Source: Deltaproteobacteria bacterium
GTDB taxonomy: Bacteria > Desulfobacterota > Desulfobaccia > Desulfobaccales > 0-14-0-80-60-11
NCBI GenBank assembly: GCA_016874915.1
Contig: VGSW01000001.1
Span: 1-62,074, forward strand
Direction of reading: 5' to 3'
DNA: 62,074 nt
This document shows, piece after piece, positions 4,866-58,378 of the stretch. A program made the position numbers and the translations under genes. The notes under the pieces are model-generated. The model ran no database searches. It was not told where the DNA came from and worked only from the letters and a program-made list of their open reading frames with translations. Position 1 is the stretch's first letter, and each line of letters begins with the position of its first letter.

Positions 4866-6175
4866 TATAAAATATACCGGCTCAAATCCTCATCCTCGAT
4901 CAAATTCGCCAGCCGGTCCCGCACATATTCCGCGGTGATGGCGATTTCCTGCTCCTCTAATTCCGGGGCTTTGAAGGAGATATCCTCCAGGAGCTTTTCC
5001 ATTACCGTGTGCAGGCGCCGGGCCCCGATGTTCTCCGTGCGCTCATTGACCCGGGTGGCCAATAGGGCCAGTTCCTTCACCGCATCCGGCCGGAAATTGA
5101 GGCGGATGCCCTCGGTGGCCATGAGGGCGTGGTACTGCTTGATGAGGGCGTTTTCCGGCTCGGTCAGGATGCGCTCAAATTCCTCCGGCCCCAGGGAGTT
5201 CAGCTCCACCCGGATGGGGAAGCGGCCCTGCATCTCGGGGATCAGATCCGAGGGCTTGGACATGTGGAAGGCCCCGGACGCGATGAACAGGATATGGTCG
5301 GTCTTGACCATGCCGTACTTGGTGTTCACCGTGGTGCCTTCCACGATGGGCAGCAGGTCCCGCTGCACCCCCTCCCGGGAGACGTCGGGCCCCCGGGTGT
5401 GGTTCCGCCCCGCGATTTTGTCGATTTCGTCCAGGAAGATGATGCCGTTCTGCTCCACCTTGCGCCGGGCCTCTTCCACCACCCGGTCCATGTCGATGAG
5501 GCGCTGGGATTCCTCTTGCAAGAGCAATTCCCGGGCTTCGGCGATCTTGACCCGCCGGGTCTTGGTCTTCTGGGGAAAGAGGCCCCCCATCATTTCCCGC
5601 AAATTGAATTCCATTTCCTCCATGCCACTGGCGGAAAAAATCTCCACCACCGGGGCCAGGCGCTGGGTGACCTCCATGTCCACGTAGCGGTCATCCATCT
5701 TCCCGTCCCGGAGCATGGCACGGAGCCGGTCCCGGGTGGCGTCCTTCTCGCCTTCCGGAGGCGGGGCGCTGCCGGGCAGGAGCAGGTCCAGGAGCTTTTC
5801 CTCCACCGCCTCCTGGGCCTTGGCCTGGACCTTGTCCCGTTCCGCGGCCTTAACCATGTTCACCGCCAACTCCATCAGGTCCCGGACCATGGACTCCACG
5901 TCCCGGCCCACGTAGCCCACCTCGGTGAACTTGGTGGCCTCGATCTTTAAAAACGGCGAATGGGCCAGCTTGGCCAGCCGCCGCGCAATCTCGGTTTTGC
6001 CCACCCCGGTGGGCCCGATCATGATGATGTTTTTGGGCGCGATCTCATCCCGCAGCTCCTCGGGAACCTGCTGGCGCCGCCAGCGGTTGCGCAGGGCGAT
6101 GGCCACGGAGCGCTTGGCGTTCTCCTGGCCCACGATGTATTTATCCAACTCCGCCACGATCTCCCGGGGCGTCAT
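4865..6175 (-). CDS. hslU: ATP-dependent protease ATPase subunit HslU
   Basis: [17 protein letters not shown], Walker [29 protein letters not shown] 4865..6220 trimmed to ATG 6175, by analogy with the E. coli N-terminus MSEMTPREIV. Confidence 0.93.
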
Positions 6176-11922: not shown

Positions 11923-12026
11923 AGGCAGTTTTCGGTTTTCGGTCTTCGGTTTTCGGTTAAAAGGATTGGGATTATTGAAGGATTGCAATTTGGGTTTGCA
12001 GCATTTGAGAAGGAAACCGGCATAAA

Positions 12027-25373: not shown

Positions 25374-25628
25374 AAATATCTTTTCATCCTTTACGGGTGA
25401 GCCAACGGCTCATGAACAACTGCTCTGAAAAGTTTTCGGTCTTCGGTCTTCGGTTTTCGGTTTGGAAAAAAGCGTAGGCTGGGAATGGCCCACCGAAAAC
25501 AGCTAAGGTAAAAGTAGAAACTACGATCGCCAGGTTCAAGCTAGGGCTTCAATTCAATACCAGGTTAACTGGTGTTAAAGGAAGCAAGGGGGCCGACTTC
25601 CGCGAAAAGTCAATTAAATTAGCCAGAT

Positions 25629-27741: not shown

Positions 27742-27865
27742 TTAACCACAAAGACACCAAGACACCAAGCAATACAGAGAATGCATTTATTTGTGTCCTG
27801 GAGTTCCAGGACACAAATAATTATTCCTTGGTGAATCTTTGTGTCTTTGTGTCTTTGTGTTTAAA
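27742..27865. repeat. palindromic element, family TTAACCACCAAGACACCAAGACAC
   Basis: ttaaccacaaagacaccaagacaccaag ... cttggtgaatctttgtgtctttgtgtctttgtgtttaaa, with inner hairpin 27786-27820. Confidence 0.85.
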
Positions 27866-27886: not shown

Positions 27887-27981
27887 ATACCATTTTCTCT
27901 TTCAAGTGCAACAAACTTAATCTGTAACTTATTGATAATCCGTAATTATCTTTACCGAAAACCGAAGACCGAAAACCGTAT
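27887..27981 (-). mobile_element. MITE-like element ATACC...GGTAT, diverged copy
   Basis: ataccattttctctttcaagtgcaacaaac...ttattgataat...ccgaaaaccgaagaccgaaaaccgtat. In the livM-livG spacer. Confidence 0.7.
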
Positions 27982-27990
27982 AACTGGATC

Positions 27991-30340: not shown

Positions 30341-31624
30341 ATGACCAGCACCGCCAATTCGGAGCGGATCTTTCAGGCCGCGCGGCAGCTGATGCCCGGC
30401 GGCGTCAACAGCCCGGTGCGGGCCTGGGGGGCCGTGGGCGGCTCGCCCCGGGTCATCGCCCAAGGGAAAGGCGCCCGGGTTTATGACGTGGATGGCAATT
30501 CCTACCTGGATTACATGGCCTCCTGGGGGCCGTTGATCCTGGGCCACGCCTATCCGCAGGTGGTGGCCGCGGTGAGCCGGGCCGCGGCCCTGGGCGCCAG
30601 CTTCGGAGCGCCCACCCCGGGGGAGGTGGAGTTGGCCCAGGTGCTGCTGGGCGCCGTGCCGGGCCTGGAAATGGTCCGCCTGGTGAGTTCCGGCACCGAG
30701 GCCTGCATGAGCGCCTTGAGATTGGCCCGGGGCGCCACCGGCCGCGATCGGGTCATCAAGTTCGACGGCTGCTACCACGGCCACGCCGACTCCTTCCTGG
30801 TGGCCGCGGGAAGCGGGGTCCTCACCCACGCCATCCCCGGCAGCCCCGGCGTGCCCCAACCAATCGCCGACCTGACCCTGTCCCTGCCATACAACGATTT
30901 GGACGCGGTGCGCCGGGCCTTTAAGGACCACTCCGGGGAATTCGCCGCGGTCATGGTGGAGCCGGTGGCCGGGAACATGGGGGTGGTGCCGCCTCAGCCG
31001 GGGTTTCTGGAGGGACTGCGGCAAATTTGCACCGAGTCCGGGACTCTCCTTATCCTGGATGAAGTAATCACCGGTTTCCGGGTGGGGTGGGGGGGCGCCC
31101 AAGCTCTTTACGGCATCAAACCCGACCTCACCTGCCTGGGGAAAATCGTGGGTGGCGGCCTGCCCCTGGCCGCGTACGGCGGCCGCCGGGACCTGATGAG
31201 CCAGATGGCCCCCGAAGGCCCTATCTATCAGGCCGGCACCCTTTCCGGCAATCCCGTGGCCGTGGCCGCGGGGCTGGCCACCCTGGCAGCCCTGGAGCAG
31301 CCCGGAGTGTATGAAGACCTGGAAGAAAAAGGCGCCTGGCTGGAAAATGAACTGACCCGGGCCGCGGCGAAGGCCAAGGTCCCGGTGACCCTCAACCGGG
31401 TGGGGTCCATGATGACCCTGTTCTTCACCGCCGGCCCGGTCACTAACCTGGAGGAGGCCAAGAAGTCCGACCTTAAGCGCTTTTCCAGGTTTTTCCAGGG
31501 CATGCTGGCGGAAGGGATTTATCTGCCGCCCTCCCAATTCGAGGCCTTTTTCATTTCCCTGGCCCACACCCCGAAAGACCTGGAATTCACCGCGGCCGCG
31601 GCCCGGCGGGTGTTGGCTCTGTAG
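30341..31624 (+). CDS. hemL: glutamate-1-semialdehyde 2,1-aminomutase
   Basis: 427 aa. MPGGVNSPVRAW, ILDEVITGFRVG, LGKIVGGGLP (PLP Lys). Confidence 0.93.
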   Translation: MTSTANSERIFQAARQLMPGGVNSPVRAWGAVGGSPRVIAQGKGARVYDVDGNSYLDYMASWGPLILGHAYPQVVAAVSRAAALGASFGAPTPGEVELAQVLLGAVPGLEMVRLVSSGTEACMSALRLARGATGRDRVIKFDGCYHGHADSFLVAAGSGVLTHAIPGSPGVPQPIADLTLSLPYNDLDAVRRAFKDHSGEFAAVMVEPVAGNMGVVPPQPGFLEGLRQICTESGTLLILDEVITGFRVGWGGAQALYGIKPDLTCLGKIVGGGLPLAAYGGRRDLMSQMAPEGPIYQAGTLSGNPVAVAAGLATLAALEQPGVYEDLEEKGAWLENELTRAAAKAKVPVTLNRVGSMMTLFFTAGPVTNLEEAKKSDLKRFSRFFQGMLAEGIYLPPSQFEAFFISLAHTPKDLEFTAAAARRVLAL

Positions 31625-31681
31625 TTGCCAGTGGTTAGGGGGCCGGCTTATCCCCCTCGAGACCACCCCCTTATTTATATA

Positions 31682-31789
31682 ATACCGTTTTCGGTTTTCG
31701 GTTTTCAGTTTTCAGTTTTCGGTTAAATAAAATTTTATTATCAATGAGTTAGCCATTGAATTAATTGCATCTGAAACTGAACTTGGTAT
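31682..31789 (+). mobile_element. MITE-like element ATACC...GGTAT
   Basis: ataccgttttcggttttcggttttcag...ttattatcaatgagttagccattga...gcatctgaaactgaacttggtat. Between the convergent hemL and diguanylate cyclase genes. Confidence 0.85.
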
Positions 31790-31796
31790 AACAGGT

Positions 31797-34385
31797 TCAC
31801 GCCAGATTAAGCTGGTGCTCCCTCGGCTCCTCCTCGGGTTGGCTGGCCGCCACCCGGTCCCGGCCGGCGTGCTTGGCCCGGTAAAGGGCCTTGTCCGCCT
31901 TGACAATAACCGCGTCGCCGCTGGCGCCATCATCAGGAAAGATGGCGACCCCGATGGACAGAGTGACAGTTTCCAGGGATTGACCCTGGTACGTCACCCG
32001 CACCTTTTTAAAATCCCTCCGTAATTTTTCCGCCCGCTGCAGGCAGGTTTTCAAGTCAGCCCCCGGCAGGATCAACAGGAATTCTTCCCCGCCATAGCGG
32101 CAGGCAATGTCTTCAGTGCGGACCTGCGACTGGAGGAAATTGCCCAGCACCCGCAGCAGTTCGTCTCCCGCATGATGACCATAGGAGTCGTTAAATCTCT
32201 TAAAATGGTCCAGGTCGATCATCAACATGCCCAACGGGGAGCCCAGGCGCTTTAAACGGTTGATTTCCCGTTCCACCATTTCTTCCATGTAACGGCGGTT
32301 GAACAGGCCGGTGAGGGAGTCCCGGATGGCCTGGGTGCGCAGGGTTTCCCGCAGCCGCAAATTGCCCACCGCCAGAGAAATATGCTCGGCCACGGACACG
32401 GCCAAGCGCTTCTTATCTTCTTCGGGAAAATCCGCCTCGCCTGGGGTTTCGGCGGGGTGGCAAAAATTCAGGCGCAGGTGCAGGCATCCCAGGGCGTCTC
32501 CCTGGGCCACCAGGGGCACACACAAATAGCAGTCGATTTCCGGAGAGACATGGGGACAAGGCAAGCCGTCCTGGTGGTCCTTCACCCGGTGCACCCGGCC
32601 CCGCCTGGTGGCCCAACAATCGTCCGGCGGAAAATCAGCCTCCCGGGGAGGGGCCGCGCCCCAAAAAGCCACCATCTCCAGTAAGTTCCGGGAGTTGTTG
32701 AGAATATACAAAGCCCCGGAGTCCGCGGAAAATAACCTGGGGCTGAAACTGCAAACCGCGGCGTAAGCTTCCTCGAAAGAGTGGCACGACTGCAGGAGGT
32801 CGCTCATTTCATTGACGAGGGTGATCTTCCGGGTCTGCTCCCGAGAATCCTTGACCGCGGTTTGGAGCCGGGCGTTAAGTTCCTGCAATTCCACCTCCGT
32901 CCTTTTGCGCTCGCTGATGTCCATCAGCACTCCCTGGAGAAAGATAGGGCGGCCTTCCTGGTCTCTCACCACCCGGGTATCATCCCGGACCCAGACCGGT
33001 CGGCCGGAACGGGACAGGAGCCGGTATTCGGCGACAAAGGGCTCGCCGGTCTCATGACTCCGAGACAGCAGGGCCCGGACCTGCTCCTGGTCTTCGGGAT
33101 GAAGCTGCTTGCTCCACATTTCCGGTTCACTCTGCCACTCCGCGGCCGTAAAGCCCAATAAAGTCTCTATTTGGGGACTGATATATATGGTGGTATTGAC
33201 TTCATCCAGGGCCGCCATGTAAGCCACTGCGGGGATCTGCTCCACCAGGGTGCGATACTTGAATTCCGACTCCTGCAGGGCTTCCAGGGCCTGCCGTCGC
33301 TCCAACTCGCGTTGCTCAAGGGCGGCGGCCATATGGTCCAGGGCCTGGCCCAACTGGCCCAGCTCTCCCTTCTCCTTTCCCAGAGCCGTCCTGGCCTCCA
33401 AATCACCGGCTGCCAGCCGCTGGGCGGTGGTTCGAAAGATCTTTATCCGCCGGATGATAAGGATCCGGCCCAGGGGCAAGGCGATGAACAGGGTGAAGCC
33501 CACCGCTCCCGCCAGGGCCACCAGGTTGCGGATAAGAGTGCGCTCGGAAGGCCCAAATACCGCGTCAGTGGGAATCCCCAGGTATAAAAATCCTTTTTGA
33601 GGCAAGGCTTCCAGGGGCTGGAAAGCGTACAGACGGGGGACGCCGTCCATTCCCCGGGCCTCCGCCACTCCCCTTTCCTGCTCCATAATTATTTTAACCA
33701 CCTGAGCCCCGGCCATGGTTTTTCCCACCCATTTCTCCGGGTCGAGATACCGGAACAGGATATTGCCCTGTGAGTCAATAATGGTAAGATTGGCCTCGGG
33801 AGTCATATTGGTGAAGGGAAACAGTTCTCTGAGCCAGGCCAGGTCCAGGGCGGCAAAGACCACGGCCTCCACTTCCCCGGCTTTGTTCAAGGCCGGATAG
33901 GCACAGAGCATGGTGGCCTTGCCGGTTATCCGGCCTATCTGAAGTTCTCCTACGGCAAAATCTTTGGTCTGCAGGACCCGTTGAAACCAGTTTCGGTCAG
34001 TACTGAATACCGGGGTTTTCATGGGCTGGGCGCTGCAAAAAATAAAGCCCTCCCAATTCATCGCGCCCAGATTGCCATACAATCCCGGGTGTTTTTCCAA
34101 AATGCTGGCGAAAAAGGCCGAACATTTTTCCGCCTCTTTGCTCTGCACCGCGGGATAGTGGGCCAGGGAAGCCAACAGCTGGTGAGTCATTTTTAAAGTG
34201 TTTTCGAAGTTCCAGGAAAATTCCTTGACCAGCCGGAGAATCTCTTCCTGGGCGGCGTTGGCGGCCTGGCGGCGTTGCTCCAGCCCGTTGTATAGAATCA
34301 GCCCTAACCCCGGGGACGCGGCCAGAAAGACCAGCAGGGCGATGCGGAATAGCAGGCTGTTTAAAAATTTGGCCAAGGCAACCAT
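31797..34385 (-). CDS. sensor diguanylate cyclase (TM-Cache-HAMP-PAS-GAF-GGDEF)
   Basis: 862 aa. HAMP (LAAGDLEAR...), PAS (FKYRTLVEQIPAVAY...), GAF, and active-site RYGGEEF. Confidence 0.87.
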   Translation of the reverse strand: MVALAKFLNSLLFRIALLVFLAASPGLGLILYNGLEQRRQAANAAQEEILRLVKEFSWNFENTLKMTHQLLASLAHYPAVQSKEAEKCSAFFASILEKHPGLYGNLGAMNWEGFIFCSAQPMKTPVFSTDRNWFQRVLQTKDFAVGELQIGRITGKATMLCAYPALNKAGEVEAVVFAALDLAWLRELFPFTNMTPEANLTIIDSQGNILFRYLDPEKWVGKTMAGAQVVKIIMEQERGVAEARGMDGVPRLYAFQPLEALPQKGFLYLGIPTDAVFGPSERTLIRNLVALAGAVGFTLFIALPLGRILIIRRIKIFRTTAQRLAAGDLEARTALGKEKGELGQLGQALDHMAAALEQRELERRQALEALQESEFKYRTLVEQIPAVAYMAALDEVNTTIYISPQIETLLGFTAAEWQSEPEMWSKQLHPEDQEQVRALLSRSHETGEPFVAEYRLLSRSGRPVWVRDDTRVVRDQEGRPIFLQGVLMDISERKRTEVELQELNARLQTAVKDSREQTRKITLVNEMSDLLQSCHSFEEAYAAVCSFSPRLFSADSGALYILNNSRNLLEMVAFWGAAPPREADFPPDDCWATRRGRVHRVKDHQDGLPCPHVSPEIDCYLCVPLVAQGDALGCLHLRLNFCHPAETPGEADFPEEDKKRLAVSVAEHISLAVGNLRLRETLRTQAIRDSLTGLFNRRYMEEMVEREINRLKRLGSPLGMLMIDLDHFKRFNDSYGHHAGDELLRVLGNFLQSQVRTEDIACRYGGEEFLLILPGADLKTCLQRAEKLRRDFKKVRVTYQGQSLETVTLSIGVAIFPDDGASGDAVIVKADKALYRAKHAGRDRVAASQPEEEPREHQLNLA

Positions 34386-34940: not shown

Positions 34941-37892
34941 ATGGCCGAAGAACCCCGGGTCCTATATCTCATTGACATCAGTTCCTATTTTTACCGGGCC
35001 TTTCATGCCATCCGGGGCCTGTCCACCTCCAAGGGCTTCCCCACCAACGCGGCGTTTGGCGTGACCAACATGCTCCTCAAAGTGCTGCGGGAGCGCCAGC
35101 CCCAATATTTGGCCCTGGTCTTTGATTCCAAGGCCCCCACCGTCCGCCATAAGCGCTACCCCGAGTATAAGGCCCACCGTCCGCCCATGCCCGAGGAGCT
35201 GGTGATGCAGCTCCCCTACATTCATAAGATTATAAAAGCCTTAAACCTGCCGGCCCTGGAGCTGGAAGGGTTTGAGGCCGACGACCTCATCTGCACCCTG
35301 GCGAAGAAGGCCCTGGACCAGGGTTTCCAGGTGGAGATCATCAGCGGCGACCGGGACCTGCTCCCTTGCGTCACGGCAGGGGTGGACATGTGGGATCCCA
35401 TGAAGGAGACCCGCTATGACCCGCAAGCCATCCGGGAGAAATACGGGCTGGAGCCGGAGCAGTTGGTGGACGTCAAATCCCTGGCCGGAGACCCCAGCGA
35501 CAATATCCCCGGGGTGCCGGGCATCGGGGAGAAGACCGCGCTCAAGCTCATCAGCCAATACCATAGCCTGGAAAACCTCCTGGCCCATGTGGACGAGATC
35601 AAGGAGAAATCCTTAAAGGCCCGCCTGAAAGAACATGCCGACCAGGCCCGCCTGAGCCGGGAGCTGGTGCTCCTGAACGAGAGCGTCCCCTTGCCGGTGG
35701 ACCCGGAGGCCCTCCACCCCGGGGCGCCGGACCGGGAGGCTTTGCGCCAACTATTCGTGGAGTTAGAGTTCAGCAAGTTTACCAAGGAACTGGGGTTTGA
35801 CCTGCCGGCGGCGGAGGCTTGTTTTCTGGCCCGTGGGGTGGAAGACCTGGAGGGGGTGGCCAGGGGGATAAGAGAAACCGGGGAGATGGGGATTTTTTTC
35901 ATCACCGCGGAACAGCACCCGGTGATGGCCGCGGTGGCGGGGGTGGGCCTGTCCTGGCACCCAGAGGAGGCGGCCTACGTTCCTTTGGAAGATATTACTA
36001 GGAACGGAAAAGAAGTTCCTTCACCCCCACCCCAGCCCTCCCCCCTCAAGGGGGAGGGGGTTAAAGGAAGCCTCTTCGGGGAGGGGGGAAAAGGAAGCCT
36101 CAGTGGGGCGGGGGTTGAAGGAATTCTCACCTCAGAAGGAGTTAAAGGAAGCCTCAAGGGGGAGGGGATTATACCAAGTTCGGTTTCTGGTGCAACAAAT
36201 CAAATTACTAACCTATTGATAATTAATAATTTATTAACCGAAAACCGAAAACCGAAAACCGAAAACGGTATTATTAAAGGAAACCTCACCGCGGGAATCT
36301 GGGAAAAATTAGGGCCCATGTGGGCGGACCCCGGGGTCCGTAAGATTGGCCCGGACCTGAAGGCCGCGGCAGTGCTAGGCCGCCGCTTCGGCCAGGACCT
36401 GGCCGGAATCACCGGCGACATCCTGCTGGCTTCCTACCTCCTCAACCCCGCCCGGTATGAACAGACCCTGGAGAACGTGGCCCTGCACCATCTGGGGATT
36501 AACCTCCCCGGCCCCAAGGACCTTACCGGGCGGCCGACGGCCGCCGCGGACCTCCCCCGCGACCTGGCCTGCCAATACGCCGCGGCCCGGGCCCAGGCGA
36601 GTTTAAATCTCTGGCCGCGGCTTAAAGCCCAATTGGAAAAAGAGGGCCTCTGGGACCTTTATCGCCAATTGGAGCTGCCGCTGCTGGCCGTCCTGGCCCG
36701 CATGGAGGAACGGGGCATCCTGGTGGACCAGGAATTTTTAAGGCGTTTCGGGCAAGACCTGGAAGTCCAGATGGCGCGCCTGGAACAGGAGATCTACGCC
36801 CTGGCGGGGGAGACCTTTCTGATTAACTCTCCCCAGCAACTCAGCCGCATCCTCTTTGACAAATTGAAAATCACCCCCCAGAAAAAGACCAAGGGCAAAA
36901 CCGCTTACTCCACCGACATGGAGGTGCTCCAGAGCCTGGCCCCGGAGGCGCCCATTGCCGCCAAGGTATTGGAGTACCGCGGCATGGGGAAACTCAAGGC
37001 GACTTACGTGGACGCGTTGCTGAAACTGGTGAATCCCGCCACCGACCGGGTGCACACCACCTTCCTGCAGTCCGTGGCCGCCACCGGACGCCTCTCCAGC
37101 CGGGACCCCAATCTGCAGAACATCCCGGTGCGGGGCGAACTGGGGGGCCAGCTCCGCCAGGCCTTCATACCTCCCCCGGGATGGGTTTTCCTGAGCGCGG
37201 ATTATTCCCAGATGGAGCTGCGGCTGCTGGCCCACTTCTCCGAAGACCCGGCCCTGCTTCGGGCCTTTCAGGAAAAGGTGGACATCCACCGGCAGACCGC
37301 CGCGGTGGTCTTCAATATCCACCCCGAACTGGTGACTTCGGAGATGCGCCGCCAAGCCAAGGTGGTGAACTTCGGCATCATCTACGGCATGAGCCCCTTC
37401 GGCCTGGCCAAACAGTTGGGGGTGGGAACCCGCATCGCCCACGAGTTCATCCAGCGGTATTTTGCCCGACACACCCAGGTCAAAGCCTACCTGGACCGAA
37501 CCCTGGAGGAGGCCCAGAAGCAGGGCTGGGTGACCACCCTATTGGGGCGGCGGCGCCAGATTCCCCAGATTAACAGCGCCAACCGCATCCTCCGCCAGGA
37601 GGCGGAGCGCGCCGCCATCAACACGCCGCTCCAGGGCACCGCGGCGGACATCATCAAGAAAGCCATGATCCAGGTGGAGGCGTATTTGCAAGAGGCGAAC
37701 CTGAAAGGGAGGATGCTGCTTCAGCTTCATGACGAGCTTCTGTTTGAGGCGCCCCGGGAAGAACTCCCGGAAACGGCCCGGCGGGTGCGCCGGGTCATGG
37801 AAGGGGTGGTGGAGTTGCGCGTCCCCCTGGTGGTGGATTTGCGCCAGGGCCACAACTGGGGAGAGATGTATCTACTGGATAAATCAATATAA
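34941..37892 (+). CDS. polA: DNA polymerase I, carrying an in-frame ~100-codon repeat-derived insertion
   Basis: 5'-nuclease domain (LIDISSYFYRAFHA, GDPSDNIPGVPGIGEKTA). Pol motifs A (LSADYSQMELRLLAH), B (RRQAKVVNFGIIYGMS) and C (LQLHDELLFE). 983 aa. Confidence 0.93.
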   Translation: MAEEPRVLYLIDISSYFYRAFHAIRGLSTSKGFPTNAAFGVTNMLLKVLRERQPQYLALVFDSKAPTVRHKRYPEYKAHRPPMPEELVMQLPYIHKIIKALNLPALELEGFEADDLICTLAKKALDQGFQVEIISGDRDLLPCVTAGVDMWDPMKETRYDPQAIREKYGLEPEQLVDVKSLAGDPSDNIPGVPGIGEKTALKLISQYHSLENLLAHVDEIKEKSLKARLKEHADQARLSRELVLLNESVPLPVDPEALHPGAPDREALRQLFVELEFSKFTKELGFDLPAAEACFLARGVEDLEGVARGIRETGEMGIFFITAEQHPVMAAVAGVGLSWHPEEAAYVPLEDITRNGKEVPSPPPQPSPLKGEGVKGSLFGEGGKGSLSGAGVEGILTSEGVKGSLKGEGIIPSSVSGATNQITNLLIINNLLTENRKPKTENGIIKGNLTAGIWEKLGPMWADPGVRKIGPDLKAAAVLGRRFGQDLAGITGDILLASYLLNPARYEQTLENVALHHLGINLPGPKDLTGRPTAAADLPRDLACQYAAARAQASLNLWPRLKAQLEKEGLWDLYRQLELPLLAVLARMEERGILVDQEFLRRFGQDLEVQMARLEQEIYALAGETFLINSPQQLSRILFDKLKITPQKKTKGKTAYSTDMEVLQSLAPEAPIAAKVLEYRGMGKLKATYVDALLKLVNPATDRVHTTFLQSVAATGRLSSRDPNLQNIPVRGELGGQLRQAFIPPPGWVFLSADYSQMELRLLAHFSEDPALLRAFQEKVDIHRQTAAVVFNIHPELVTSEMRRQAKVVNFGIIYGMSPFGLAKQLGVGTRIAHEFIQRYFARHTQVKAYLDRTLEEAQKQGWVTTLLGRRRQIPQINSANRILRQEAERAAINTPLQGTAADIIKKAMIQVEAYLQEANLKGRMLLQLHDELLFEAPREELPETARRVRRVMEGVVELRVPLVVDLRQGHNWGEMYLLDKSI
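36057..36164 (+). repeat. four tandem 27-nt units (GGGGTTAAAGGAAGCCTC...) inside polA
   Basis: Units at 36057, 36084, 36111 and 36138 encode GVKGSLFGE/GGKGSLSGA/GVEGILTSE/GVKGSLKGE. A degenerate fifth unit resumes at 36274, after the MITE. Confidence 0.85.
36171..36271 (-). mobile_element. MITE-like element ATACC...GGTAT, inside the polA reading frame
   Basis: Its reverse complement matches the other copies end to end (ataccgttttcggttttcgg...ttatcaataggttagtaat...accagaaaccgaacttggtat). Confidence 0.85.
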
Positions 37893-38866: not shown

Positions 38867-38948
38867 GGTTTTCGGTTTTCGGCGGCTTAAAAAGGCAAGT
38901 TGGTTACCCTATTGGGGGGGCCCCTGGGAAACTATCAGGGTTCATCTT

Positions 38949-39048
38949 ATACCGTTTTCGGTTTTCGGTTTTCAGTTTACGGTTAAATGAAATGTATTAT
39001 CAATAAGTTAGTCATAGATTTTGTTGCATCTGAAACTGAACTTGGTAT
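38949..39048 (+). mobile_element. MITE-like element ATACC...GGTAT
   Basis: Near-identical to the 48136 copy. Between the convergent lpp-like and ldt genes. Confidence 0.85.
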
Positions 39049-39168
39049 TACGCACCGATAAATGCTGACCAGGGCGAGGTCCTGGATACATAAAAAAGAG
39101 GGTATGGAAAACCCTACCCTCTTATTTCATCAATCATTTAATCCAATTAAAGCTAACAGGCTATCGGC

Positions 39169-40104
39169 TCAATCTCCGCCCCAACCGGCCAGGCCTCCCG
39201 TTTTAGTCACATCCATGGGCATGCCGTTCTGTTCTTCGATCACCTGCAGGACCTTGCGCATGTCCACCTGATCCGTCAGCCCCCGGTTCTCGATCAATCC
39301 CAGGACGTGAAGGAGCATGGAGCGGATCTTGAAATAAACGTCTTCGTGCACCGACAAGAAGATGCGCCCCTGGCGGAACCCCACCTTGGCCGGCTCGTAG
39401 ATATATTCCACCTTAGTGCCCACCGGCACCATGGGGAAAAGCTTCTTGACATGTTCCGGATACATGCGGGTGCAGCCGTGGCTCACCAGGCGCCCCACCC
39501 CCCAGGGCATGTGGGTGCCGTGGATGCCGTAGTCGCCCCAGGACAGGGTGAGCTTGTATTCTCCCAAGGGGTTGTCCGGCCCCGGCGGCATCACCGCCAT
39601 GCCGTACTTGGCTTGAAGGGACTTGGGGATGTGCCAGGCGGGGTTGGTCTTCTTTTCCACCACCCGGAACTCCCCCGACGGCGTCTTAAAGTCCAGGACC
39701 CCCATGCCGATGGGAAAGGTGGTGACCTGGGTGGCGTTGTGGGTGAAATAATAGAGGCGCATCTCCCCGGTGTTCACCACCAACTGGCGGTGGCGGCTGC
39801 CATCGGGCACGATCCAGATGGTGGGGATGGTCATCTGCGCGCCCGGAGGCGGCAGAAAGGGGTCCCAGCCGCGGTACATGGAACCGATCTCAGTGTAGCC
39901 CAAACCGAAGCGGCGGGCCACCTCCAGCAGATCTTCGCCTTTTTGCACCGTATAGTGCTGGGGAGAGCCGACCACCGTCACCGCCTGGGGGTCCAGCCCG
40001 GTGCGGGTGGACGGCAGGCGGATGGTGAACGGTCCCGCGGCCGGGGCCGGATAAGCCCAAACTAGGAATAATAAAACAACCAGCAGCGGCAGCCACTTGC
40101 GCAT
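39169..40104 (-). CDS. L,D-transpeptidase (YkuD) with LysM domain
   Basis: Signal peptide. LysM-like YTVQKGEDLLEVARRFGLGYTEIGSMY. Catalytic SHGCTRM. Confidence 0.85.
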   Translation of the reverse strand: MRKWLPLLVVLLFLVWAYPAPAAGPFTIRLPSTRTGLDPQAVTVVGSPQHYTVQKGEDLLEVARRFGLGYTEIGSMYRGWDPFLPPPGAQMTIPTIWIVPDGSRHRQLVVNTGEMRLYYFTHNATQVTTFPIGMGVLDFKTPSGEFRVVEKKTNPAWHIPKSLQAKYGMAVMPPGPDNPLGEYKLTLSWGDYGIHGTHMPWGVGRLVSHGCTRMYPEHVKKLFPMVPVGTKVEYIYEPAKVGFRQGRIFLSVHEDVYFKIRSMLLHVLGLIENRGLTDQVDMRKVLQVIEEQNGMPMDVTKTGGLAGWGGD

Positions 40105-44998: not shown

Positions 44999-46099
44999 CT
45001 AGTTGCCGCAGCAACTGTTTCCAACCACACCGCTGTCGATGCGGGTGTAACCCTGGGCTTTGGCGCCGCCGCAGGCTTCGTATATGATGGCAGCACCCTT
45101 CACGTCCACCACGACGTAATTATTCTTTTTGGTCACCGTCCAACGGGTAACGGCCGGGTCCACGGAGGTGTATTTGCTGAAGGGCGCCCCCGCGTCGCCG
45201 GCAATAACCTGGACCACCGCATTCTTCATGTCCTTGTCAACACTGCCATCCAATATCATCTTGTCATAGAGATGCTCATGGCCGCAAAAAAACATGGCCA
45301 CCTTATAGAGGTCCATATTTTTCCAGAGAGCCTCCAAGGACTTCTTATCCCGTTTCAAGGTGGAACTGACGGGAAAAACCGGCATATGGCTGAAAACGAA
45401 TTTATGGACGGCATCGGTATTTTTGAGCAAACCGTCCAGCCAGTTGAGCTGGGTGTCGGTGATGCCCCCTTCCAGGATTTTGTCCACGGTTTTCTTTTTA
45501 TCTTTAACTTGCCACATATAGTAGGAGTCCAGGACCACGAATAAGGACTTCTCCTGGCCCTCGCCATACTCAAAGTAATAAGCCAGTTTGGCGTAATTGG
45601 GGTGGCCCGGAGGGTAGGTGTCAGGCATATCCTTGAATACCTGTTGATAAAGGACCTGGTTGGAGTGCCGGTAGTCCGGCGGTTTGGCTTCGTCATAAAT
45701 CTCGTGGTTGCCCTTTACCACGTAGAGTTGAATTTCATCGGGCCGGGTGGGGTTGGTGGTCAGGGGAGACATCACTTCCACCCATCTCCGCAAGAAGGTG
45801 TCGTCCCCCTCGGCATTACCGATGCGGGAAGCCATGTCCCCCCCGAAAACCACGAAGTCCGGCTGGGGGTTTAGCGCCACGATCTTGTCCCGGATAGCCT
45901 TCAACTCCGTTTCGTTGATCATGCCATTGGGACCCTCTTTGTAATCGCCCCGGCTGTCCGCCAGAAAAACGAAGCGGAAGTCGGCCAGCCCGGAGCCGGC
46001 CAGGAGGGTGGCCCAGAACAGGGCGGCGACGATTAACGAAGCTAGAATCTTGATGGGTTTCCTTTGGTTCATGCCAAATTGTCCTCTCGAATTCATCAT
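44999..46099 (-). CDS. secreted calcineurin-like metallophosphoesterase
   Basis: FLADSRGD, VFGGDMA, GNHE, GHEH. Signal peptide. Start codon overlaps the upstream stop (ATGA). Confidence 0.8.
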   Translation of the reverse strand: MMNSRGQFGMNQRKPIKILASLIVAALFWATLLAGSGLADFRFVFLADSRGDYKEGPNGMINETELKAIRDKIVALNPQPDFVVFGGDMASRIGNAEGDDTFLRRWVEVMSPLTTNPTRPDEIQLYVVKGNHEIYDEAKPPDYRHSNQVLYQQVFKDMPDTYPPGHPNYAKLAYYFEYGEGQEKSLFVVLDSYYMWQVKDKKKTVDKILEGGITDTQLNWLDGLLKNTDAVHKFVFSHMPVFPVSSTLKRDKKSLEALWKNMDLYKVAMFFCGHEHLYDKMILDGSVDKDMKNAVVQVIAGDAGAPFSKYTSVDPAVTRWTVTKKNNYVVVDVKGAAIIYEACGGAKAQGYTRIDSGVVGNSCCGN

Positions 46100-48033
46100 T
46101 TCCGAACCTGAAGGCGTTCGGTGATGGATGGAAAATATTCCTTCTGGGTGTGGGGCAAAAACAGGGCCGCGATGTACTGGTCCATGAAGCCCGGGGTTTC
46201 GGACAGCTCGAAGTTGGTCATCATGTCCGCCACCCGGCGCTCCTCTTCCAGCATTTCCCGGGAAAAGGCCAGCAGGGTGGCCCCTTGGAGCGAGCCGTTG
46301 CCTACGAACTGGAACTTATCCCGGGGCAGGTCCGGCAGCAGGCCGATGGCGATGGCGTTGTCCACGTTGATGAAGCTGCCGAAGGCCCCGGCCAGGATGA
46401 CCTGTTCCAGGTCCTGGAGCCTGAGGCCCACGCCCTCTAGCAGAGTCATGTACCCGGCGAACATGGCCCCCTTGGCCCGCATGATGTTATCAATGTCCAC
46501 TTCGCTTAAGGTGATGTCCTGGCCGATCTCGGTATCCTCAGCGTGGGCCAGGACGTATTCCTTGCCGCTTTCGCTCATCCGGATCCGGGGCGCACAGGTA
46601 ATGAGGTCGTCCCGGAATTTGCCGTTGGGGAGAATTATCCCCGCTTCCATCAGGTTGGCCAGGAGGTTGATGAGCCCGGAGCCGCAGATGCCCTTGGGCT
46701 TCACCATGTCGATGGTCAGGATCATGGGCTCGCAGGTGTCGGGGTTGATGCTCACTTCCTCGATGGCCCCGCTGGTGGCCCGCATGCCGAAGCGGATGCC
46801 GCCGCCTTCGAAGGCCGGGCCGGCGGAGCAGGCGGCGCAGGCCAGCCACTGCTGGTTGCCGATGACGATCTCGCCGTTGGTGCCGATGTCGATGAACAGG
46901 GTGAGCCGGGACTCTTTATAGAGGCCCGAAGCCAGGACCCCGGCCACGATGTCGCCGCCCACGTAACTGCTGACGGAACTGACGCAGTAAATGAATACAT
47001 GCTCCGGCACTTCCAGGCCCAGGTCCCTGGCCCGCACCGGCGGGGTGTGGCAGACCGTGGGGGTGTAAGGGGTGAGACGGATGTATTTGGGATCGATGCC
47101 GTAAAAGAGGTGGGTCATGGTGGTGTTGGCGGCCAAAGTGATGTGGGAGACTTCGTCCACCGGCAACTTGTGCCGTTTGAGCAGCCGGTGCATCACCTGG
47201 TTGATGGTGGCCGCCACCGAGCGCTGGAGTTTTTCCAGCCCCCCGGGTTTCTGGGTGTAGAGGATGCGGGTGATGACGTCGTCCCCGTAGCTGAGCTGGG
47301 CATTGTAGTCCGCGGCCTGGCCCAGGATTTCCCCTGACGCCAGGTCCAGGAGCTGGACCCACACCGTGGTGGTGCCGATGTCCACCGCCAGGGCGAAGTG
47401 GCGGCCGGCGGTGTTCCCGGGTTCGAGGTTGACGATGCGGGGCTTGCGGGAGAGGCGCTGGGCGAAGTCCAGGGTGGCGGTGACCTGGAAGTTGTCTTCC
47501 CGCATCACCCGGCCCAGTTTCCGCAGCAGGAAGAAGTCAGTGGCCAGGTTGTCCAGGGCGTAGCGCCGGCCCAGGCCGTTTTCCAGGCGGGTCAGGTCGC
47601 AGATGTTGTCCGCCAGGGAGGCGGGGGTAAGCTCGACAAATTTTTTCTGAAAGGCCGGGTTGTAAAGACCCTGGTCCTTCAGCGCCGCGATATTGATGGG
47701 GCTGGGGCGCAGGGCCATGCCGGCCTTGCGGCGCACCAGGGTTTTGCGGTCCAGGAGGGATTCGGGGGGGATGCGGATGACGACGTCGGAGACCACCTGG
47801 GACTGACAGGCCTGGCGGTAACCCAGGTTCCACTCCTCGTCGGTGAGCAGCGCCCCCTGGGAGCTTACCAGGTCTCCCTGTTCCAGTAGGACCCGGCATT
47901 TGCCGCACACCCCTTCACCGCCGCAGGAGGCGTTGATGTGCACCCCGGCTTCCAGGGCGGCCCGGAGCAGGTTCTCCCCTTCGGGCACTTCCACGGTGAT
48001 GTCGTATGGTTTAAAAGTGACGCGTCGTACCAC
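46096..48033 (-). CDS. [2Fe-2S] ferredoxin + ASKHA ATPase protein (RACo-like corrinoid reductive activator, DUF4445)
   Basis: N-terminal CGGEGVCGKCRV plant-type ferredoxin motif. VDIGTTTV and IDIGTNGE ASKHA phosphate motifs. 645 aa. Confidence 0.68.
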   Translation of the reverse strand: MVRRVTFKPYDITVEVPEGENLLRAALEAGVHINASCGGEGVCGKCRVLLEQGDLVSSQGALLTDEEWNLGYRQACQSQVVSDVVIRIPPESLLDRKTLVRRKAGMALRPSPINIAALKDQGLYNPAFQKKFVELTPASLADNICDLTRLENGLGRRYALDNLATDFFLLRKLGRVMREDNFQVTATLDFAQRLSRKPRIVNLEPGNTAGRHFALAVDIGTTTVWVQLLDLASGEILGQAADYNAQLSYGDDVITRILYTQKPGGLEKLQRSVAATINQVMHRLLKRHKLPVDEVSHITLAANTTMTHLFYGIDPKYIRLTPYTPTVCHTPPVRARDLGLEVPEHVFIYCVSSVSSYVGGDIVAGVLASGLYKESRLTLFIDIGTNGEIVIGNQQWLACAACSAGPAFEGGGIRFGMRATSGAIEEVSINPDTCEPMILTIDMVKPKGICGSGLINLLANLMEAGIILPNGKFRDDLITCAPRIRMSESGKEYVLAHAEDTEIGQDITLSEVDIDNIMRAKGAMFAGYMTLLEGVGLRLQDLEQVILAGAFGSFINVDNAIAIGLLPDLPRDKFQFVGNGSLQGATLLAFSREMLEEERRVADMMTNFELSETPGFMDQYIAALFLPHTQKEYFPSITERLQVRK

Positions 48034-48135
48034 TATTAGGCCCTGATAAAGGAATTATGATGGCCGTAAAGGCTAAATTCTTAAGATTCTACCACAAAAA
48101 GGGGGAAGGGGAAAAGGCTAAATGGGGAAGAGGTA

Positions 48136-48229
48136 ATACCGTTTTCGGTTTTCCGTTTTCGGTTAAAAGAAATTGTATTATCAATAAGTTAGCCATAGAA
48201 TTTGTTGCATCTGAAACTGAACTTGGTAT
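48136..48229 (+). mobile_element. MITE-like element ATACC...GGTAT
   Basis: ataccgttttcggttttccgttttcggttaaaagaaattgtattatcaataagttagccatagaatttgttgcatctgaaactgaacttggtat. Confidence 0.85.
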
Positions 48230-48427
48230 AAAAAGGTTAAAAGGGCGAAAAGGCGAATAGGGGAAAATAGGAGGAATCGATCAATTTCGCGTCCCCGAAC
48301 CCAAATTGGGGTGGGAATTTTTATCTCACCCCCCTTTTAACCTCTACCGATTGTTTCTTTAACTCCGGACGGGACCTTTGAGAACCGGGCGCCTCTTACT
48401 GAAAAGAATAAAGACAAAATCTTTAAT

Positions 48428-48585
48428 GGCACAGGCTTCCAGCCTGTGGTTGCCTTGCTGAATCAACAACTCTGTCCACAGGCCAGAGGCCTGTGCCACT
48501 AAATTTTTTCAGGTTGGTAATTTCGTTCGAAATATGATCTTTTTTGCACCCTCTCCGACTTACCTTTTCGGAGCTAAGGGAATAA
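48428..48585 (+). repeat. ~155-nt composite element: two hairpins + T-run + conserved tail
   Basis: ggcacaggcttccagcctgtgg-N28-cacaggccagaggcctgtgccactaaatttttt...gcaccctctccgacttaccttttcggagc. Confidence 0.8.
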
Positions 48586-58152: not shown

Positions 58153-58378
58153 TTATGATTGTTTAAGTGGTTTTGGGTACACATATCTTTTGGTCCATTG
58201 AAAAGGCGCGGCCTTGGGGTTATATGACTCGGTAAGATTATCAATGGCTTCACGGACTTGGTGCGGATGGGTGAAGTTTCCTCCCTGCAAAGCGCCTCGT
58301 TCCAAGATGCTGAACCAGATCTCGCATTGGTTCAGCCAGGAGGCATAGGTGGGGGTATAGTGAAAATGGACCTTGGGG
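58153..58378 (-). pseudogene. C-terminal fragment of an IS630-family DDE transposase
   Basis: Own translation: PKVHFHYTPTYASWLNQCEIWFSILERGALQGGNFTHPHQVREAIDNLTESYNPKAAPFQWTKRYVYPKPLKQS*. Typical IS630 C-terminus including the catalytic E (NQCE). The N-terminal ~270 codons are missing, replaced by a repeat. Confidence 0.78.

Follow-up and report, generated by a model that had tools for sequence, protein, structure and literature searches.

The 62-kb stretch of DNA analyzed here (the window) contains five copies of a short repeat, three of which belong to the group that we designate subfamily A and lie on the forward strand. The first of these (31683-31788, +) has five heptamers in its left arm, is bracketed by a TAA duplication at 31680-31682 and 31789-31791, and is situated between two convergent genes, an aminotransferase gene (30341-31624, +) and a GGDEF gene (31797-34385, -). 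The second (48137-48228, +) has three heptamers and a TAA duplication (48134-48136 and 48229-48231) and is located 104 nt upstream of the RACo gene (46096-48033, -). In the third (38950-39047, +) the duplication is TTA (38947-38949 and 39048-39050), and the copy is placed upstream of the 3' end of a YkuD gene (39169-40104, -). The subfamily B copy (27888-27980, -), whose right arm reads GAGAAAATGGTA and whose duplication is TTA in the orientation of the element, is flanked by branched-chain amino-acid permease and ATPase genes, and at least 10 other copies in the host genome (G000) have exactly the same core. Additionally, a subfamily C copy (36172-36270, -), 99 bp that together with the 3-bp duplication make 102 bp, resides inside polA (34941-37892, +) and is identical in sequence to a copy on contig C187. 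All five copies had been proposed in an earlier, sequence-only reading of the window; each is present and they align end to end, with exact limits 1-2 nt inside those drawn there, and the common layout of TTTTCGG heptamers, an AT-rich core (with TATCAATAAGTTA) and a right arm of the form TTGCA..GAAA..GGTA was confirmed. Beside the subfamily B copy, at 27787-27860, a hairpin with a perfect 15-bp stem (TTATTTGTGTCCTGGAGTTCCAGGACACAAATAA) adjoins tandem repeats of the CACAAAGA type, a motif that recurs in the flank of the copy on contig C40.

Further heptamer-bearing sequences are scattered through the window. The sequence at 11926-12022 (+) is a diverged, near-full-length relative with a heptamer left arm, the termini GGCAG...CCGGC and a decayed core, while the blocks at 25432, 38862, 49758 and 57398 are short heptamer arrays with neither core nor right arm. 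Among these four, only the first (25432-25469, +; four units followed by an A-run) scores below E = 0.001 against the profile of the repeat, and there the match is weak and confined to the left arm (E = 8e-4). All five had been suggested as possible decayed arms; this does not hold for 11926, which is a diverged whole element, and the other four are best described as solo heptamer blocks.

The host genome is a metagenome-assembled genome of a Desulfobaccales bacterium of the sulfate-reducer type, comprising 3.73 Mb in 302 contigs with 57% G+C and 5% contamination, and because it is fragmented all copy numbers given here are minimum estimates. A hidden Markov model built from the five window copies resulted in 188 matches, 61 of them full length, which bears out the expectation of further copies elsewhere in the genome. 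These full copies range from 84 to 135 bp, have no coding capacity and are dispersed over many contigs; the window, with five copies where 1.0 would be expected from the genome-wide density, is enriched (Poisson P = 0.004). Alignment of 60 copies with their flanks showed that the ends TACC (or TACG)...GGTA are common to all subfamilies and, together with heptamer-like inner repeats, form terminal repeats that are imperfect, the two arms being unequal. The order of parts begins with a left arm of 2-9 GTTTTCG heptamers (mode 4), followed by GGTTAAAA, an AT-rich core that contains ATTATCAATAAGTTA, a conserved TTTGTTGCA block and the right arm. At least five subfamilies can be distinguished, and the 49 well-delimited copies fall into subfamilies A (24), B (15), C (3), D (2) and E (2), with three singletons. 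In 67 pairs the two copies are identical outside the heptamer array, from which it follows both that array length evolves faster than point substitutions accumulate and that amplification has been recent.

The sequences that flank the copies show that the target duplication is 3 bp long and of the form T-N-A. Of 41 informative copies, 39 carry concordant triplets on both sides (TAA/TAA in 23 and TTA/TTA in 16) and two are discordant. These triplets constitute a direct repeat rather than part of the element, since the bases of an inverted repeat would co-vary as complements and these do not. The sequence-only reading had proposed a TA duplication, for the reason that TA forms the first two bases of the element itself (TAcc...ggTA); the true duplication lies outside of it and is TAA or TTA. 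A model of TA-only duplication, when forced onto the TAA and TTA sites, needs an extra base at one or the other element end, and it is excluded by the agreement of the middle base (W) between the two flanks and by a copy in the relative G003 with TCA/TCA flanks.

Empty sites provide an independent view of insertion. The filled site CAGTAA[element]TAAGAGG on contig C112 has an uninterrupted paralog within the window (48346-48478, -; 95% identity over 133 nt) that reads CAGTAAGAGG with a single TAA and is thus an exact empty site. Exact paralogous empty sites also exist in G000 for the copies C37_24564, C37_24383 and C9_21919, and many more lie inside a G-rich repeat family. Comparison with relatives, which the sequence-only reading had proposed as a check, likewise yielded filled and empty alleles, at polA in the same-genus genome G001 and upstream of RACo in L129. 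The latter site is filled in G000, empty in L129 (the closest relative), filled at a different offset in the G012 lineage, and empty in approximately 49 others. When 42 joined flanks were searched in G001, most intergenic flanks were too diverged to align; one site was clearly empty, one insertion was clearly shared and one case was nested. Paralogous sites within G000 worked better. The insertion C3_20795 is old and is occupied in G001 too. Taken together, the many near-identical dispersed copies, their ends, the target duplications, the empty sites, the nesting in other repeats and an IS with matching ends (below) establish that the repeat is a MITE, as had been suggested.

A duplication of the form TWA is typical of PIF/Harbinger transposons and some IS5 subgroups (PMC2213677), and for this reason partners of that type were looked for first. 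IS5-type transposases are indeed present in G000; however, the genome has no DDE_Tnp_4 gene, the MITE ends are missing from all of approximately 50 IS5-type loci across 41 genomes, the multi-copy IS5-type element that we examined has unrelated ends (TGAGACCTCTGC) with small derivatives that are themselves inserted in MITEs, and the ends that do match belong to an IS630-family IS. A Tourist-like MITE of an IS5 or PIF/Harbinger-type transposon is accordingly very improbable.

The IS5-type element represents a second mobile family in these genomes. It is approximately 1244 bp long, encodes a 328-aa transposase between the ends TGAGACCTCTGC...GCAGAGGTCTCA, and occurs in G021 at loci L046 and L048-L051; non-coding derivatives of approximately 215 bp occur in G000 (C112:2906-3124, C8:7205-7423, C164:2709-2926, C36:16631-16841 and others). 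Several heptamer MITEs have a truncated right arm that directly adjoins an end of this family (...CTGAACT|TGAGACC), and in G021 the complete IS sits in the context ...GCAACCT|IS|AACCTGGTAT, so that it may insert preferentially into the MITE right arm. The converse nesting was observed as well, with MITE C30_9161 inserted in an IS5-type derivative.

The matching ends were found by searching G000 with the right arm only, which returned a single isolated right arm (C49:4897-4922, -) directly downstream of an IS630-family (DDE_3) frame. The candidate parent at this position (G000:C49, ~4893-6013, -) is an IS of about 1.1 kb with the structure TTA|TACCAAATTCGCATTGACATGCAACAAAT...ATTTGTTGCATTAGAAAGCGAACTTGATA|TTA, and it supplies the full-length element with matching ends that the sequence-only reading had suggested be sought. 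Its terminal repeats of approximately 30 bp are equal to the MITE right arm and contain the TTGTTGCA block, whose strong conservation in the MITEs is explained by its place within the IS terminal repeat. The first of its two open reading frames matches HTH_33 (4e-17), HTH_32 and HTH_28, and the second matches DDE_3 (9e-22). Homologs with 64-79% protein identity occur in G017, G028, G031, G003 and G023; the copy on G003:C49 reads TAA|TACCAAATTC...GAACTTGGTA|TAA and that on G017:C22 reads TTA|TACCATTTTCG...GAAAATGGTA|TAA, that is, with discordant flanks. Over about 29 nt the ends of these two and of G000:C49 align with the MITE right arm, which upholds the IS630/Tc1-mariner origin that had been put forward for the repeat. 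IS630-family elements classically duplicate TA, and a 3-bp duplication is therefore atypical for the family; no precedent for it was found in the literature searched.

No complete and undamaged IS was seen among the copies examined: ORF2 of G000:C49 carries a 1-nt frameshift, G003:C49 has an internal deletion that leaves 869 bp from end to end, and in G028 and G031 the alignment covers only part of the IS. In G017:C22 (locus L182) ORF2 is interrupted by a 124-bp insertion (ATGCTACTGCGTTCAGTAGTCC...GTAGTAGGATT) that looks like another small element. In every IS copy ORF1 stops at a conserved run of eight A residues (TTTTAAAAAAAAC; at ~5455 in G000:C49 and at the same place in G017:C22 and other homologs), with ORF2 in the +1 frame, and this junction suggests that programmed frameshifting or transcriptional slippage could produce the full transposase. 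The only IS630-family remnant in the window is a C-terminal transposase stump (58153-58377, -; DDE_3 positions 106-139) which belongs to a different clade and is followed by no MITE-like terminal repeat, in agreement with the earlier judgment that it is not linked to the MITE.

Identification of this IS also bears on whether the repeat could be a palindrome of the REP/REPIN type spread by a domesticated Y1 (RAYT) transposase. Such an origin would account for a small, intergenic, imperfect palindrome in many copies, and G000 contains nine Y1_Tnp-like matches, but no MITE copy lies within 2 kb of any Y1_Tnp locus, the ends match a DDE-type IS, and the copies have regular 3-bp target duplications. 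Y1 transposases are not known to make such duplications, and we regard this as the least credible of the explanations considered.

Whereas the right arm equals the full IS repeat, the left arm shares with it only TACCnTTTTCG, lacks its inner half and continues with GTTTTCG repeats. The IS repeat itself holds two degenerate heptamer-like units, AGTTCAG TTTCAGA, and from this resemblance the heptamer array looks like an expansion of the inner motif of the IS repeat. A comparison of the left arm with viral contigs gave no exact match. Beyond the 61 full-length copies, G000 harbors more than 120 partial or solo heptamer arms and arrays without the MITE core (e.g., C8:35166-35211, C65:5158-5191 and C16:1622-1659, as well as 25432, 49758 and 57398 in the window). 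Many of the core-less arrays directly follow a stop codon and open with GGCAG or AGACG instead of TACCG, and some are hairpins made of an array, a loop and an inverted array, one of which is followed by a T-run in the manner of a terminator. They may belong to older families related to this one or form a class of their own. On contigs C71 and C49, heptamer arrays close to IS630-like genes were considered as possible IS ends and rejected, as they are separate small elements.

Gene context was assessed with rough gene calls from a home-made caller. Only one of the 61 copies is intragenic (polA); 52 have a called gene on either side, and of these 32 are located between co-directional, 16 between convergent and 4 between divergent gene pairs. 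Convergent gaps thus hold 31% of copies while making up 19% of intergenic length, a mild excess, and divergent gaps show a deficit (8% versus 15%). Gene 3' ends are faced by the heptamer side 33 times and by the GGTA side 36 times, which amounts to no orientation preference. A candidate outward sigma-70 promoter in the right arm, TTGCAT-N16-TATAAn, was rejected (the scan made no call and the -35 hexamer matches at 3/6 positions); 18 of the 52 copies have their GGTA end turned toward a gene 5' end, with no bias toward gene starts.

The sequence-only reading had noted that G:U pairs could form in RNA from one strand only and had taken this as a hint of a strand-specific RNA structure. The asymmetry is real in silico, with the top-strand RNA more stable in 48 of 49 copies (-19.3 versus -10.9 kcal/mol), but the advantage of the top-strand fold over composition-matched shuffles is only 1.25 SD, and the asymmetry is mainly an effect of G+U composition. 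This small margin and the random orientation lend no support to a selected strand-specific RNA. Moreover, the window as a whole has no Rfam match at gathering thresholds, the two sides of the element face the 3' end of the upstream gene about equally (33 versus 36, above), and differences in the arms between subfamilies are uncompensated. That the repeat acts as a small RNA or cis-acting mRNA element relying on G:U pairs is consequently most unlikely.

The polA insertion (36172-36270) is read through in frame, contributing 34 codons and no stop to a protein of 983 aa in which it occupies the linker between the 5'-3' exonuclease and polymerase parts. The polA gene of G001 has no MITE at this place. 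The insertion lies inside an older G-rich tandem repeat with a 27-nt period that is present in G000, G001 and G012 and absent from G009, G013 and G003. In the window this linker repeat occupies 36020-36170 and 36274-36290, with the unit CCTCAAGGGGGAGGGGGTTAAAGGAAG read as LKGEGVKGS; G-rich palindromic repeats related to it flank many MITE copies and are frequent hosts for insertion.

The AT-rich core matches the IHF consensus (WATCAANNNNTTR) on the top strand in 49 of 60 copies from G000 and in 21 of 40 copies from relatives, compared with 0.5% of shuffled sequences. Across subfamilies ATCAA and TTR are kept while the intervening N4 varies (TAAG, TAGG, TATG or TGTA), and approximately 50 of the 223 IHF consensus sites in the genome lie inside the MITE family. 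At least five HU/IHF-type (DNABII) proteins are encoded in G000, with candidates on contigs C44, C182 and C260, and all of them score below the IHF equivalog cut-offs. By analogy with Correia elements and BIMEs (PMC10969869, PMC3184786), the consensus match may plausibly be a site of IHF action, and the core may more generally be a site for a host nucleoid protein.

The MITE family was detected in 31 of 41 related genomes, covering two families within a single order, and in 40 copies from 15 relatives the ends, the heptamer arm and the TTGTTGCA block are preserved and the T-N-A flanks match. Between some copies of G001 and G000 the identity is 97-100% (for example, C332:862-956 versus window 27889-27983), whereas polA DNA is only ~87% identical, indicative of recent activity or bursts, exchange, or cross-contamination between metagenome bins.

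These observations raise the question of whether the repeat, having spread by transposition, is now kept for a host function as an IHF-type site for nucleoid-protein binding or bending, or as a 3'-end hairpin for stabilizing or terminating transcripts. Precedents for elements with host functions are the Correia, ERIC and BIME sequences (PMC10969869, PMC3184786), and such a function would be consistent with a core motif conserved in the IHF-consensus pattern over two families of the order, with the large share of genomic consensus sites inside the family and with the mild convergent-gene excess. However, orientation relative to genes is random, the hairpin has no following T-run, occupancy of orthologous sites differs between close relatives, identical copies reflect recent spread rather than ancient fixed sites, and IHF is not clearly identified in G000. 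Host retention is therefore unlikely as the main explanation, although it is the alternative to which we give most weight.

In our view the repeats are, very probably, a non-autonomous transposon that is derived from an IS630-family IS and was moved by it in trans, trans-mobilization being the part that we infer. The right arm of about 30 bp (TACCAAGTTCnnTTTCnnATGCAACAAAT, read inward) is the terminal inverted repeat of the IS, and the left arm retains the outer ~11 nt of that repeat (TACCnTTTTCG) followed by the GTTTTCG array, which may stand in for the inner repeat and changes in length between two and nine units by slippage. Integration takes place at T-N-A, nearly always TAA or TTA, with 3 bp duplicated. 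In the AT-rich core an A-tract precedes the IHF-consensus match, and bending there could join the unequal ends for the transposase. Surviving copies are mostly intergenic and randomly oriented, with the one 102-bp in-frame insertion in the polA linker tolerated. Beyond this general scheme, it is possible, and we propose it only tentatively, that this IS630 clade and its MITEs both integrate with a 3-bp T-N-A stagger and replace the inner terminal repeat with a slippage-prone heptamer array. If true, the stagger and the heptamer arm would constitute a natural variant of Tc1-mariner integration geometry and of transposon-end recognition. The IHF-type core, conserved across an order, might in this view be exapted by the host.

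For the Desulfobaccales, which are known almost only from metagenome bins, these results provide a defined MITE family with a parent IS, a target rule, subfamilies and insertion polymorphisms, which should help with annotation, account for contig breaks and supply strain markers. For an IS630-type element the 3-bp duplication is a small mechanistic oddity, as is the variable heptamer arm, and the in-frame copy in polA is a further case in which an essential gene tolerates mobile DNA. The current understanding of MITEs is unchanged by this; it is an ordinary kind of mobile DNA that is well documented here.

Among known systems, the IS630-derived bacterial MITEs (such as Nezha/ISNpu3 in Anabaena-Nostoc and MITEEc1) resemble the present family in being small and non-coding, in having a terminal repeat in common with an HTH plus DDE_3 IS, and in their target direct repeats, filled and empty sites and hairpin-forming sequence (PMC3184786). 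The present family is set apart by its architecture, in that the duplication is 3-bp T-N-A instead of TA and the full terminal repeat is found on one arm only, the other being a variable heptamer microsatellite. Correia elements of Neisseria share a size of ~100-150 bp, inverted ends, many copies, a central IHF consensus and occasional intragenic copies (PMC10969869, PMC3184786). They differ in that they duplicate TA, have no known parent IS and are unrelated in sequence and phylum; furthermore, their IHF site and outward promoters are experimentally shown, whereas here the core is a consensus match only and the promoter-like TTGCAT-N16-TATAAn has no orientation bias toward genes. The BrickBuilt MITE of Porphyromonas gingivalis likewise contains a tandem array of variable copy number (PMC4596501), but its 23-nt minisatellite is in the body of the element, while the 7-nt unit described here forms an arm and resembles the inner IS repeat. 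Finally, the stop-free, in-frame insertion in a housekeeping gene, here polA, recalls the Rickettsia palindromic elements (PMC10969869); those elements are mostly intragenic, as opposed to 1 of 61 copies here, and the polA copy fits better with a rare tolerated accident than with a habit.
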